The position numbers and the translations under genes are program-made. Shown here one piece after another: positions 1 to 59,992 of a stretch of DNA of 64,000 bases. The notes under the pieces were generated by a model that was not told the origin of the DNA, searched no databases, and was given only the letters and a program-made list of their open reading frames with translations. The stretch's first letter is position 1; each line of letters starts with the position of its first letter. The DNA comes from Eledone cirrhosa (Eukaryota), in the NCBI GenBank assembly GCA_964016885.1, contig OZ024747.1, positions 17,732,001-17,796,000 of the forward strand, read 5' to 3'.

Positions 1-111
1 GTAAGACCCCGACAGCTGAGCTCAAGCCGTTTCGACGGCTAATTCTGGACTAATGTCCAGAATTAGCCGTCGAAACGGCTTGAGCTCAGCTGTCGGGGTC
101 TTACTGGTTCC
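1..111. mobile_element. TA-embedded palindromic element, family A (cut by window start)
   Basis: Perfect 50-bp inverted repeat (1-50 / 55-104, loop TAAT) followed by TTCC-(TA)n; same sequence recurs at 978, 14371, 30319, 39816, 58057 and 59802. Confidence 0.8.
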
Positions 112-977
112 TATATATATATATATATATATATATATATAATAACCAAAGCATTTCCAATTTACCTACTTGTCAAAGCATCATTCATTAAATTATATTT
201 ACTCTCATGTAAATCAGCGTAACTCGATCTATATAGCAGCCAGATTTACTCAAAACGCCTCAGAAATTTATATTACGAAACAACACGTTTGTATATGTTC
301 TATATATACGAAAATACACCATACATATATTTCCAGCGGCACACGACACACACACACACACACACACACACACACATATATATATATATATATAGATTAT
401 ATCCGTATTTGTGGTTACATATACACAAATATACTTGCCCTCATATATGTACTTACGCACACATTTTCACCATACACACGCATTTGTACATACATATGTA
501 CATTTGTGAGTGTATATACATACATATACACACAGCTAACTATATTTCCTTATATTTTTTTATATATTTATATGTCTATTGCATTACCTTTATTTATATA
601 TATATATTTTTTTTTTTTTGCATTTCTTGAGGAGACTTTCCAAATTTTTCACTATGTTTTATATTGCCTTGTCCGACGAACGAATGAGGACGTTTCTTTC
701 GTATTCGTCTTATTCGGGAAACCTCTGGTAATGAGGTAATTATATTGTATTGTTTACTATACATTAAATTTTGCTCTGGTACTTACATAGAGCACTCTTC
801 ACTCCTATGACTTTTTCAATTCCAACGGAAACTTCAATACATATATATATATATATATACATATGTGTGTATATATATATATATGTGTGTGTATGTGTGT
901 GTGTGTGTGTGTGTGTGTGTGTGTGTGTGTGTGTGTGTGTGTGTGTGTGTGTGTATCATATATATATATATATATAT

Positions 978-1221
978 AACAAAGAACGTGTGGTAAGATA
1001 CCAGGTGGACCATAATGCACCAGAGTACTCGCAGAGTACTCGATACTTAGGGTAGTAGAGTGGGTAATAGGAAAAGAGTCAGGACCCCGATGGCTGAGCT
1101 CCGTTTCGACGGCTAGATCTGAACTAAGCCGCCAGTATTAGTACGGCGGGAATCTAGCTGAACACATCAAGGGGTACAGTCCATTTATGGGCATTCAGCC
1201 ATCGGGTTCCTGACTCTTTTC
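978..1221. mobile_element. Family A palindromic element, diverged copy
   Basis: GTGGTAAGATACCAGGTGGACCATAA...GGGTAGTAGAGTGGGTAATAGGAAAA long arm and a short inverted arm; (TA)n on both sides. Confidence 0.75.
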
Positions 1222-1326
1222 ATATATATATATATATATATATGAAATGTATGCATATTCTTGTGTTACGTCGATGTTTGACTTTGGCATGTCAAATAGT
1301 TTTTCATTGCTCAAATTTATCCAAGA

Positions 1327-2249
1327 CTAGCATTAAAGCCCGGCGTTGCTCGGGGTCATTAAGTTACCAAAGTTAGGTTGCACCACCCATTTTATGGCAC
1401 CATTTTTTTGTCTGCCGGGCACTGGGTGAATGAATTGCAGACCTGGAAGCATGAGCTGCGCCAGCAGTGACAATTGTAGTTTCGCCTATGGATATTATCT
1501 CTGTGCAAAAAAGTGTTGAAATTTATTGTTTCACAGTACTTGCGCAACACGCGCGTAGACGATGCCAGCCGAACAACAGAGCTGCGATGGAGTTGTTCTG
1601 TTGGGTTGTCTGTGTGTTTTCTAAATTTAAGACAGTAGGGAGGGTTGTGATATGAGGGAGAGTTAGCTGTTGTTTCTAGCAGGTTTAGTGACCTCATAGA
1701 GGATATGTGTTTTCTAAATTTAAGACAGTAAGGAGTGGTGTGATATGGGGGAGAGTTAGCTGCTATTTCTAGCAGGTTTAGTGACCTCATAGAAGATATG
1801 TTTTCTAAATTTAAGACAGTAGGGAGGGGTGTGATATGGGGGAGAGTTAGTTGCTGTTTCTAGCAGGTTTAGTAACCTCATAGAGGATATGTGTTTTCTA
1901 AATTTAAGACAGTAGGGAGTGGTGTGAACGGACAGTATCACCATCAAGCTTGGAAAGAGAAAGTAGCAGAAAGTATGAAGTTGTATAGATTTTGAATGGT
2001 AGCAGAAAGAGTTTAGCAGTTTAAATGAGAGAGAAAAATCGTAAAATATTGAGTTTTATCTATTTTTTGCGTAATTGTGGGTGAAATTGAAAAAATTATC
2101 TGCGTCAAGACGCAATCGAAGCTTTTTCGAATACTGAATTGTAAATTTCAATTGAAGAAATTCTATATCGTAGATTTCTATAACGAAGGAGCATGACCAC
2201 ACACTGAGCTTTATAGATTATGATATAAGATATAGTTGATATAGATAGA
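1327..2249 (-). mobile_element. Non-autonomous Helitron-like element with internal minisatellite
   Basis: Minus-strand 3' end CCCGAGCAACGCCGGG hairpin + CTAG at 1327-1355, the same terminus as 3352-3380; TCTAT-rich 5' end near 2240 (boundary approximate). Confidence 0.6.
1610..1926. repeat. ~61-bp tandem repeat, ~5 copies
   Basis: Unit TGTGTTTTCTAAATTTAAGACAGTAGGGAG...GTTTCTAGCAGGTTTAGTGACCTCATAGAGGATA repeated. Confidence 0.9.
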
Positions 2250-2997
2250 GTGATAAGCTTTAGTCATTTTCTGAAATGTTAAATATAGTTCATATTTATT
2301 TATCACAATAAGTTTAGAAGCTGAAGACATATTATTGCACTTAGTAACTTTGATGAAAAGCTGTCGTCATTTCGGTTTTGTTTCTTTGCTGCGCTAAACA
2401 TCTTTACGTATAAAAAGAAAAATATACTTCAATTATATCCGCATCACGGAGTGCCAAGTAAGAAACAAATATTAATAACATGAATGTCTTGTGAATTCAG
2501 AGCTTACAGCACCTACATACTGCTATACTTATTAAATGTCATGACGTTTTCACCTATAAAATACATTACAACGACGTAGACAACATCGAAGTCAAAAGTC
2601 TGAAACTACTTCGCTTTTACTTATTCTATATATATATATATATATATATATATATATATATGAATGTATGTATAGTATATTTGGCAATATACCGTATGTT
2701 TAATTAAAAACATTTAGAAGACCATACGCTATCAGCTTTAAAGAAGTGACTATGTCGCTTACTTCTTTTCGACGAAAGCAGGGAGAGAAGCTGACAGTCT
2801 GTTTCACGCTGGCTGGCGTTCATCAGAGCCACGCACTTCCCTGCTTCCGTCGGAAATTATATAAGCTGGATTCTTATAGAATTCCAGTAATATATATATA
2901 TATATATTTAGTATATGTTGGTTGTTTACCGACACCTCAGTATGCAGATTGGAGCACTCGATGAAGTACGCAGGTTGGTTTGGTTACTCCGGAGTAA

Positions 2998-3380
2998 TCT
3001 TTATATATATAAAAGCGAGGATGTGTGTGTGTCTGTGTACAAATTTGGATACCTAAGGCTTTTACAATTACCAACCGAATTTGACCAACTTTTTTCTGTG
3101 CACGTTGCTCAGGTCGCTAAGATGGTCACATCACAAAAATTTTCCAATCGACCCACGTTGAGCAATAAAAAAATCGATATCAAAATTATCGGTAGCAAAA
3201 TTGATGTAAGGGAGATAACCAACTTTATTGACAATCCTTATTTAAAAAAGGGAGATAACTAACTTTATTGACAATCCTTATAAAGACAGGTTGGGGACAA
3301 ATAATGTTCTTCTTTTACTTCCTAGCTGTATATTCTTAGCATAATTTCAAACCCCGAGCAACGCCGGGTAAATCTGCTAG
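2998..3380 (+). mobile_element. Non-autonomous Helitron
   Basis: Starts TCTTTATATATATAAAA after an A, ends with CCCGAGCAACGCCGGG hairpin and CTAG before a T (A|T insertion, no TSD). Confidence 0.75.
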
Positions 3381-58056: not shown

Positions 58057-58266
58057 GGAACGAGTAGGACCCCGACGGCTGAGCTCAAGCCGTTTCGACG
58101 GCTAATTCTGGACTAATTTCGGCGGCTAATTCTGGACAAGCCATCGAAACGGCTTGAGCTCAGCCGTCGGGGTCCTACTCGTTCCTATTACCCACTCTAC
58201 TACCCTAAGTATTGAGTACTTTGGTGCGTTATGGTCCATCTGGTTCCTTACCACATTTCCTTCGTT
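58057..58266. mobile_element. Family A palindromic element
   Basis: Short arm left, long arm right; another short fragment at 58334-58383. Confidence 0.85.
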
Positions 58267-58410
58267 ATATATATATATATATATATATATATATATCAAT
58301 TAAATATGGTTTTGTAGTATGTAGCATGTTCTCATTAGCCGTCGAAACGGCTTGAGCTCAGCCGTCAGGGTCCTACTCGTTCCTATATATATATATATAT
58401 ATATATATAT

Positions 58411-58930
58411 ATATTGTTATACTTTGGGAGGGTCATGTTGCCAATAAAAAAAGACACGCACAGGTTGCTTTTACTTCAATTTATTATAATAAATTTAGAA
58501 ATTTAGAAATTTATAAATTTCCGATTGGTTGGTTGGTTCCACAACCAGATGATTGTTTATATATTGTCAAAGTTCTTTCGTCACACATTCTGTGACCTCT
58601 TCAGTGACTGGGGATTCTTTTCTTTGTTTTTGTGCCTATCCTTTGTTCTGTCTTACGCCATCTTGTTTTTGAATCCCCAGTCACTGAAGAGGTCACAGAA
58701 TGTGTGACGAAAGAACTTTGACAATATATAAACAATCATCTGGTTGTGGAACCAACCAACCAACCGGAAATTTATAAATTCCTAAATTTATTAATTTATT
58801 ATAATAAAGTGAAGTGAAAGCAACTGGTGCGTGTGTTTCTTATTGGCAACATGACCCTCCCAAAGTATAACAATATCGGTTTCAACACACGTTTTCAGAT
58901 AAAGAATCTTGCTAAACAAATTCAGAAACG
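58411..58930. mobile_element. TA-embedded palindrome (family F) with hammerhead-like motif
   Basis: ~205-bp arms 58411-58617 / 58671-58876 plus a ~54-bp tail. Confidence 0.75.
58680..58722 (+). ncRNA. Minimal type I hammerhead ribozyme-like motif
   Basis: GTCA-CTGAAGA-G-GTCACA-GAATG-TGTGAC-GAAA-GAAC-TT-TGAC: stem I GTCA/TGAC, stem II 6 bp, conserved core. Confidence 0.55.
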
Positions 58931-59349
58931 ATATATATATATATATATATATATATATATATATATATATATATATATATATATATATATATATATGGGA
59001 AATGATAAAGATTTGAAAAAAAGCACCTATGATTTTTTTTATTTTATATACATGTCACGTTTATAGTATACATCGAAAAAAATGTTTACATGAAAATGAA
59101 TAGTTTTTGTACTTTTTTACTTGACCAGTTTCGCTTAAAACATCTTTTGAAAAGTTTCTCATGTTTAATTTACTAGTTTTATACATATATATGCACATAG
59201 ACACACACACATGGATAAATATACACATATATATATATGTGTGTGTGTGTGTGTGTGTGTGTGTCTGTGTGTCTATATATGTGTGTCTGTGTCTGTATGT
59301 CTGTGTGTGTGTCTGTGTGTGTGTGTGTGTGTGTTTAATTCCCAGAATG

Positions 59350-59668
59350 TTGTTGTAACCTTGGATTTACAATCGGGAGTTGTAAGTTCGATTCCCGGAC
59401 CAGGCGGTGAGTTGTGTCCTTGAGCAAGACACTTTATTTCACGTTGTTCCAGTTCACTCAGCTGCAAAAATGCGACGTCACTGGTGTCAAGTTGTATCGG
59501 CCTTTGTCTTTCCATTGGTTGAAATCGGTCACGTGGAGACTGGTGTGTATAGGCGATTAATGGTCTTCCACAAAAGCACCTCACCCAATCTTGCGCCACG
59601 GGTGTGCGGGAGAACTTTCTAGGTGCAAAACCGAAGGTCATTCGTGACCGAAAGAGGCCTTTACCCGT
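59350..59668 (+). mobile_element. CORE-like SINE (family B)
   Basis: GTTCGATTCCC B-box, TGTCCTTGAGCAAGACACTTTATTTCAC core. Confidence 0.8.
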
Positions 59669-59801
59669 TATATATATATATTTATATATATATATATATA
59701 TATATATATATATATATATATATATATATATATATATATATATATATATATATATATAAATATATATATATAACGGGTAAAGGCCTCTTTACCGGTTATA
59801 T

Positions 59802-59992
59802 AACGAAGGAATTGTGGTAAGGAACCAGATGGACCATAACGCACCAAAGTACTCAATACTTAGGGTAGTAGAGTGAGTAATAGGAACAAGTATGACCCCG
59901 ACGGCAGAGCTCAAGCCGTTTCGACGGCTATTTCAGTCCAGAAATAGCCGTCGAAACGGCTTGAGATCTGCCGTCGGGGTCATACTTGTTCC
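59802..59992. mobile_element. Family A palindromic element
   Basis: Long arm left, short inverted arm right; (TA)n flank. Confidence 0.85.

Follow-up and report, generated by a model that had tools for sequence, protein, structure and literature searches.

Penelope-like elements (PLEs) are retrotransposons whose inverted, 5′-truncated copies are analysed here in a microsatellite-rich stretch of 64,000 nt, called the window, from the 3.0-Gb assembly of Eledone cirrhosa (contig OZ024747.1, positions 17,732,001 to 17,796,000). Craig et al. (2021; PMC8557442) described inverted 5′-truncated PLE copies that often carry a tail at one end only and show a bias toward TA, and treated their formation as an open problem. 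The cited sections of that paper are qualitative on inverted copies and tails, and they contain no pairing rule, census of short hairpins or twin-priming model. PAc, a Poseidon element of Anolis, was studied in vitro by Frangieh et al. (2024; PMC11167929), who reported that it cuts and extends both strands and that two reverse transcriptase (RT) start sites bound the tail. Unlike the present analysis, the PAc study, in its cited sections, leaves inverted copies unexplained and the later steps open. For Penelope of Adineta vaga, Arkhipova et al. (2013; PMC3846280) explained inverted pseudo-long terminal repeats (pLTRs) by antisense self-priming on the basis of a handful of copies. The string "palindrom" does not occur in the main text of PMC13282606 as available, and no report of a pairing rule or of PLE twin priming was found in the literature covered, which excludes the PLE papers of 2004–2006 that may anticipate one.

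Thirteen of the fifteen palindromes listed in an earlier reading of the window (the original prediction) are 5′-truncated PLE insertions of seven families, designated A to F and I. Five families are Hydra-type (two of them by a short or remnant link), one is Neptune-type and one is a non-coding tandem. On balance, these hairpins were probably twin-primed at two RT start sites of one RNA. The pairing of the ends was determined in a sample of 110 pieces of 10 kb (1.1 Mb) taken at round coordinates on large contigs, a sample that is systematic and not random. It contains 196 3′ ends of the seven families, of which 89 are tailed, 87 are tail-less and 20 are partial. Each family features two fixed 3′ ends, a tail-less one and a tailed one, and the end positions are bimodal. 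Altogether 108 ends form 54 head-to-head pairs, 50 of which combine a tail with a tail-less end and 4 of which include a partial end; tail + tail pairs and tail-less + tail-less pairs are both absent among the 54. About half of the pairs would be mixed under free pairing, and the binomial probability of 50 in 50 is 2e-15. Loci that were fetched incidentally for other families contribute 35 mixed pairs, 2 tail + tail pairs, 2 tail-less pairs and 6 with a partial end. TA flanks are found on both sides of 43 of the 54 pairs, on one side of 10 and on neither side of 1, consistent with insertion into (TA)n.

The junctions between the arms were measured in 92 of 94 unbiased mixed pairs, of which 51 are clean. 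The tail-less arm is longer at 33 of the clean junctions, the tailed arm at 5, and the arms are equal at 13. When both arms are required to be at least 25 nt long, which removes the bias against short tail-less arms, the counts for tail-less, tailed and equal are 17:5:13 (17:5, p = 0.017). Both polarities occur among the longer pairs of the unbiased set (8 versus 4), and pairs with the longer arm on the tailed side reach from hundreds of nt up to 2,600 nt. Many pairs have arms of which neither could have been copied straightforwardly from its partner. The clean junctions feature overlaps of 1–7 nt in 29 cases, blunt joints in 5 and 1–4 extra bases in 17, and at 9 of the 51 no base is duplicated. 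These are inversion junctions with short microhomology, some of them without duplication, as in L1-type twin priming.

Fold-back, or self-priming, has been the published explanation for such products. A single cDNA, or an antisense RNA, would be copied back on itself, the endonuclease (EN) would trim the product at staggered sites, and later deletions would skew the arms. Self-priming (PMC3846280) and EN-mediated resolution as the source of the tail (PMC8557442) are proposed in the cited parts of these papers. Fold-back naturally yields arms with identical alleles and a product with one tail, and family F copies with a short tailed arm are slightly older. However, under fold-back the identity of the longer arm is predetermined, whereas near-identical arms are found in both polarities (485/376 nt with 375/377 matches in the family D hairpin of the window, and 222/655 at locus L063). 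The 9 junctions that duplicate nothing would require a subsequent deletion, and fold-back of a cDNA predicts longer tailed arms, which are the minority class. Additionally, the template of PAc in vitro is sense RNA, and each of the two strands is extended, according to the cited sections of PMC11167929. Copies of A. vaga Penelope resemble the present ones in their head-to-head inverted pLTRs, junction palindromes and a tail on one inverted pLTR (cited part of PMC3846280); unlike that proposal, the two polarities and the non-overlapping inversions found here argue against a fixed fold-back, which we regard as distinctly improbable. Later deletion inside the palindromes may contribute to the differences between arms. 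Synchronous synthesis, in which the cDNAs would be equal in length, was rejected; a few pairs agree with it, but the overall effect was not significant. Adenosine-to-inosine editing was considered for an arm-discordant site in 11 of 30 query hits and rejected; the variant is query-selected and absent in unbiased copies, and the substitution spectra are alike in both arms.

Subfamily alleles are shared between the arms in 24 of 26 scorable family A pairs, 16 of which come from a query-selected set; shuffled pairs gave a mean of 6.8 and a maximum of 15. Together with the one-tail rule, this sharing indirectly suggests that both cDNAs were made from one RNA molecule. The alternative is that two RNAs are held by a protein dimer, in which each subunit would prime one strand, the dimer geometry would assign the tail-less and the tailed site, and the two cDNAs would be joined head to head. 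This model has the same two-cDNA core as the original prediction, and it accounts equally well for the fact that either arm can be longer and for the non-overlapping class. PAc has been predicted to be a dimer (cited part of PMC11167929). The only tail + tail pair in the window (39817..40116) has discordant subfamily alleles, a point counted in favour of twin priming and of two RNAs alike, and 2 of the 26 pairs differ at one diagnostic site. However, a dimer needs an extra rule against tail + tail and tail-less + tail-less pairs (0 of 50), and, with several young subfamilies present side by side, the two RNAs would still have to come from a single one of them in 24 of 26 pairs. Two RNAs on a dimer are possible but unlikely.

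A few master hairpins might instead have been re-copied as non-autonomous units, with their junctions inherited. The family E hairpin of the window (14186–14341) and locus L125 (G000:C7:51847261), which are 34 Mb apart, have an identical junction and differ in their flanks and tail ends. One family A junction is present in 8 of 30 query-selected copies, and junctions cluster 55–70 nt from the tail-less end, within or beside a hammerhead-like structure (19/24 pairs in A, 6/15 in F and 3/3 in B). Against this, the recurrent A junction was selected by a query that contains that sequence, the same subfamily is found as long-armed and as short copies, and all 39 of 39 unbiased family A junctions are distinct by the key that was applied. 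The latter result agrees with the fixed arm ends and varying fold-back points that the original prediction had proposed to look for. With a microhomology of 3 nt, the shared E junction might form more than once in a population of some thousands of copies; it is either such a recurrence or a re-copied hairpin. Master hairpins are a very unlikely explanation.

TA targets and inverted ends also resemble the miniature inverted-repeat transposable elements (MITEs) of Tc1/mariner transposons, and no contig or read spanned a whole hairpin of the window, as would be needed to dismiss an assembly artefact directly. A de novo scan of the 1.1-Mb sample gave 129 hairpin calls, of which 58 are asymmetric and 1 is symmetric. 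The lengths are variable, the tails continue into open reading frames (ORFs) with RT and GIY-YIG domains, and the parents encode an RT and not a transposase, so that families of fixed length belonging to a DNA transposase, named in advance as the finding that would overturn the original prediction, were not what was found. The arms differ by substitutions and respect family-specific ends, and the same ends and strand-switch joints are present in raw reads of other samples. These are Illumina restriction site-associated DNA sequencing (RAD-seq) reads from three other samples of one study, compared with the family A parent. Reads that end against (TA)n number 2,614, 2,349 and 2,257 at the tail-less site and 7,686, 8,306 and 10,467 at the tailed site in the three samples. 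Eight strand-switch joints were recorded in the raw reads; in most of them the arms overlap slightly or not at all, and several of the eight rest on one start position. A read-depth cliff at L013:1508 was not used as evidence, as it coincides with an AATT site, where RAD cutting may have produced it. MITEs and assembly artefacts have a negligible probability, and for the PLE sites the data support the earlier view that these palindromes are not MITEs and that two cDNAs would have been joined head to head.

Many hairpins lie beyond the seven families. Of the 58 asymmetric calls, 32 belong to further families with tails of their own, and 12 of these 32 have a heuristic link to a PLE ORF; among three links that were inspected, two appear credible, and the third is in doubt owing to an intervening TA run. 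Extrapolation from the sample gives ~150,000 head-to-head pairs from the seven families and ~160,000 asymmetric hairpins overall. A satellite array of inverted subunits at L271 (G000:C7:30000001-30010000) accounts for 21 of the 129 de novo calls.

Internal priming sites of L1 vary in position. The original report of twin priming in L1 is said to be that of Ostertag and Kazazian in 2001. As in L1 (cited part of PMC2912911), both target ends would prime on one RNA here, and joining by short microhomology gives a 5′ inversion. L1 primers use the RNA 3′ end and an internal site (PMC2912911, same part), whereas here both sites are fixed and close together. The downstream cDNA here usually overruns the upstream site, so that the product is a hairpin, unlike in L1. 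Twin priming of a PLE would begin with the cleavage of a (TA)n run on both strands by the element's EN; cutting of both strands has been found in vitro for PAc of the anole. Over 3–5 nt, one DNA end would pair with the tail-less start site and the other with the tailed site 48–115 nt downstream. A TAT/ATA match of 3–5 nt is present at 12 of 12 start sites with a known parent continuation, a count that is somewhat favoured by defining the ends at the change to TA. Both cDNAs would be extended toward the RNA 5′ end, with the trailing cDNA probably displacing the leading one; the PLE RT is not known to have RNase H. Joining of the two cDNA 3′ ends would follow, with microhomology that is short or absent. 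A trailing cDNA that stops before the upstream site would give a plain inversion without duplicated bases, and one that passes it would give a hairpin. The data would be fitted equally well if the two sites lay on two pLTR copies of one tandem transcript. The arms run through the hammerhead, so the template would be uncleaved RNA. The likeness to PAc includes two internal start sites that bound the tail, the cutting and extension of both strands, an AT-rich target and an uncleaved RNA template (cited part of PMC11167929). There is an even chance that twin priming is the normal insertion route of EN+ PLEs and not an error, in which case the start sites would exist so that each cut strand primes on the same RNA.

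Several points weigh against twin priming. Palindromes delete after insertion: in family F, pairs whose tailed arm is very short show slightly more divergence than the others (p = 0.04), and family A shows no such effect (p = 0.63). Of the 92 measured junctions, 41 were excluded from the arm-length count because of inserts or diverged references, and 88 of the 196 sampled ends are unpaired, several of them being missed or split pairs, so the 54 pairs are a lower bound. No clear coupling is seen between the lengths of the two arms (Spearman 0.22, p = 0.11; within-family permutation p = 0.04). Fold-back would lead to shared alleles too, as would gene conversion between the arms or two RNAs derived from a single source locus. 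Additionally, PAc was reported to start at a site lacking homology to the cut DNA (cited part of PMC11167929), in contrast to the TA matches found here.

The window contains an intact Hydra-type PLE of family F on the minus strand (53930..57666), which consists of a partial 5′ pLTR, a tail/5′ untranslated region, an ORF and a 3′ pLTR that ends at the tail-less site against (TA)n. The 5′ pLTR (57180..57666, minus strand, 487 nt) is 98.6% identical to the 3′ pLTR (53930-54416) and contains a hammerhead-like motif. The inverted arm (57665..57922, plus strand) features 162 nt of pLTR and a 96-nt tail followed by (TA)n, with a junction overlap of 2 nt. Partial-tandem pLTRs with an inverted 5′ copy and a tail are thus present in F, and the A and D parents have the same plan. 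The ORF (54922..57042, minus strand) encodes 706 aa with an RT plus a GIY-YIG domain at the C-terminus in a single frame, as read from motifs, and the GIY-YIG-like motif is conserved among its homologs, of which 606 were found. Pfam, PDB and profile-PDB searches of this ORF gave no match. The motif set of the Hydra clade is complete in the window ORF, with RWR (RWK-type), DKTG, YRDD, a CxCX5C linker, and CxxC and CxH near the C-terminus; CCHH is absent. This agrees with the cited definition of the clade in PMC8557442, namely a single RT + C-terminal GIY-YIG ORF with RW[KR], DKT, a CxCX5C linker and no CCHH, and insertion into (TA)n, the pLTR and an inverted 5′-truncated copy with a tail at one end are likewise shared. 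Unlike in that description, the tails here are 48–115 nt instead of 30–40, and the unit is 3.25 kb instead of "generally <3 kb". F, A and D are assigned as Hydra-type, F by motif match to the same definition, and B and C are so placed by shorter links.

That the families would join an RT/GIY-YIG ORF, which had been proposed as a check on the original prediction, is borne out to different extents. Besides F itself, the family A tail continues into another Hydra-type ORF with 52% identity to the window ORF in 2 of 30 loci, and the family D tail continues into a third, with ~43% identity to the window ORF, in 3 of 30 loci. One locus has family C downstream of a remnant of GIY-YIG (E 9e-5), and ~16 nt of the family B tail end precede the start of a Hydra-type ORF in L236. 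The family I arm follows an RT + GIY-YIG ORF whose linker reads CX4CxxC, and such ORFs are located in L212, L213 and L209. This family features a C-terminal EN, a linker of the CX2-5CxxC type and two Cys within GIY-YIG, as in Neptune-type elements; Neptune and Nematis both fit. An Asn-rich stretch in the N-terminal family I ORF (L213:3578-4207) recalls the N-rich inserts of Adineta Penelope (cited part of PMC3846280). The tails of A, B and C and of 9 of the 32 unassigned hairpins share GAG(T/C)(A/G)C (shuffled mean 0.9, maximum 5), which is possibly a protein-binding or start-site signal.

Family B features a canonical hammerhead core with three compensated forms of stem I. The descriptor search found variant or weak hammerhead motifs in F, A and I and none in D, E or C; Rfam found none, and folding z-scores are weak. 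The family E parent is a non-coding head-to-tail tandem with a unit of ~735 bp, in which a CTGATGA core is present and a full hammerhead was not recovered by descriptor or Rfam. Ten such head-to-tail 735-bp units with ~99% identity form a retrozyme-like array in L211 (G000:C1:43917400-43924300). At L143:2259 (minus strand), a B-type hammerhead region passes straight into an E-type tail and unit sequence, linking both families. Retrozymes have been linked to PLEs (bioRxiv 10.64898/2026.07.22.740005), and in the cited part of that report the non-LTR (long terminal repeat) retrozymes are like family E in being non-coding head-to-tail tandems with PLE-type ends. They have a type I hammerhead per unit, unlike family E, in which a complete hammerhead was not recovered and which forms hairpins of tail and tail-less arms.

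The listed palindromes of the window, none of which is assigned a strand, had been described as mostly asymmetric and as coming from at least seven unrelated families. An inverted repeat is indeed present at 15 of 15 coordinates, and under a strict self-BLAST rule the window contains 12 hairpins and each of 10 shuffles 0. Seven sites all belong to family A, however, so the list holds nine sequence families in total. The family A hairpins are located at 1..114 (with the tail just upstream of the window start), 978..1225 (a diverged subfamily with a tail, a long tailed arm and a 31-nt tail-less arm), 14371..14574, 30319..30521, 39817..40116 (listed at 39816), 58057..58266 and 59802..59995. Of these, the hairpins at 14371, 30319 and 59802 run from tail to tail-less end and the one at 58057 from tail-less end to tail. 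The predicted layout, with one arm abutting TA and the other tailed, is found at 11 of the 13 PLE sites; at 39816 both arms are tailed and carry different subfamily alleles around a 20-nt insert.

The remaining PLE sites each represent one family. Family B forms a hairpin with a tail (11591..11781). The old family C hairpin (11797..11910) has a truncated left arm and a right arm that ends at the tail-less site, and the tail claimed for it is actually part of the arm. The family D hairpin (11987..12962) features a tail-less arm of 485 nt and a tailed arm of 376 nt plus a 115-nt tail, with an overlap of 1 nt. In the family E hairpin the arms are 69/46 nt plus a tail, and in the Neptune-type family I hairpin (58411..58930) they are 258/206 nt plus a 58-nt tail. 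The family F copy at 14797..14976 had been described as a 180-bp miniature of the intact element. It does have the end layout of the latter, with a tail-less arm of 65–71 nt and a tailed arm of 14 nt plus a 96-nt tail, but the arms pair over only 13 bp, which makes it an inversion more than a hairpin and nearly a non-overlapping one. Two sites are not placed among the PLEs, and the original prediction does not hold for them. The one at 40229..40339 (family G) is an inverted duplication of the 3′ end of an apurinic/apyrimidinic endonuclease (APE)-type long interspersed nuclear element, so called from its translated ORF; none of 27 other family G copies with a diagnostic 13-mer has the hairpin form, and a 28th copy is without the 13-mer. 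The other, at 45300..45410 (family H), is an unassigned, imperfect 31-bp inverted repeat with a spacer of ~50 nt, and it is single-copy, as a genome-wide search returned only the self-match.

Further repeats were observed in the window. Single-arm or tail-only fragments of F, A and B lie between TA runs at 13024-13117, 14617-14696, 44905-45041, 48375-48638 and 58334-58386. Inverted repeats beyond those listed earlier are found at 46310-46372 beside (AG)n, at 11164-11259 (an old palindrome), at 9078-9117 (a 40-bp palindrome) and at 62421-63068, the last being an inverted pair of an abundant repeat that resembles short interspersed nuclear elements (SINE-like). This dispersed repeat occupies 8361-9073, 17642-17786, 20274-22416, 38211-38864, 46489-47422 and 61048-63068, and a tRNA-like Rfam match at 37957-38014 lies in a different repeat. 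A very young high-copy repeat (40339-40500 onward, and L179-L207) features an invariant left end that follows TA, and at 39 of the 40 places scored it matches over 62 nt at 100%. A transposase remnant with a 69-bp inverted repeat (29318-30170), which we take to be Mariner-like, had no Pfam match. Two broken ORFs of non-LTR retrotransposons on the plus strand (3782-6127 and 50759-52714) have RVT_1 matches, and the first also matches zf-RVT.

Inverted pLTRs and tails are already known PLE traits; the novelty lies in the scale, the one-tail rule and the class without overlap, and the latter two discriminate between insertion models. The hairpins are easily mislabelled as MITEs or as pre-miRNAs, and Rfam gives sub-threshold miRNA matches on them. 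Any transcripts of these hairpins would form double-stranded RNA on which editing and silencing could act. If twin priming is the normal route, it would explain the tail, the inverted pLTR and the joining of the second strand in one step, and PLEs would be a standing source of ~10^5 near-perfect hairpins in this genome, from two PLE clades and perhaps at least 25 families.

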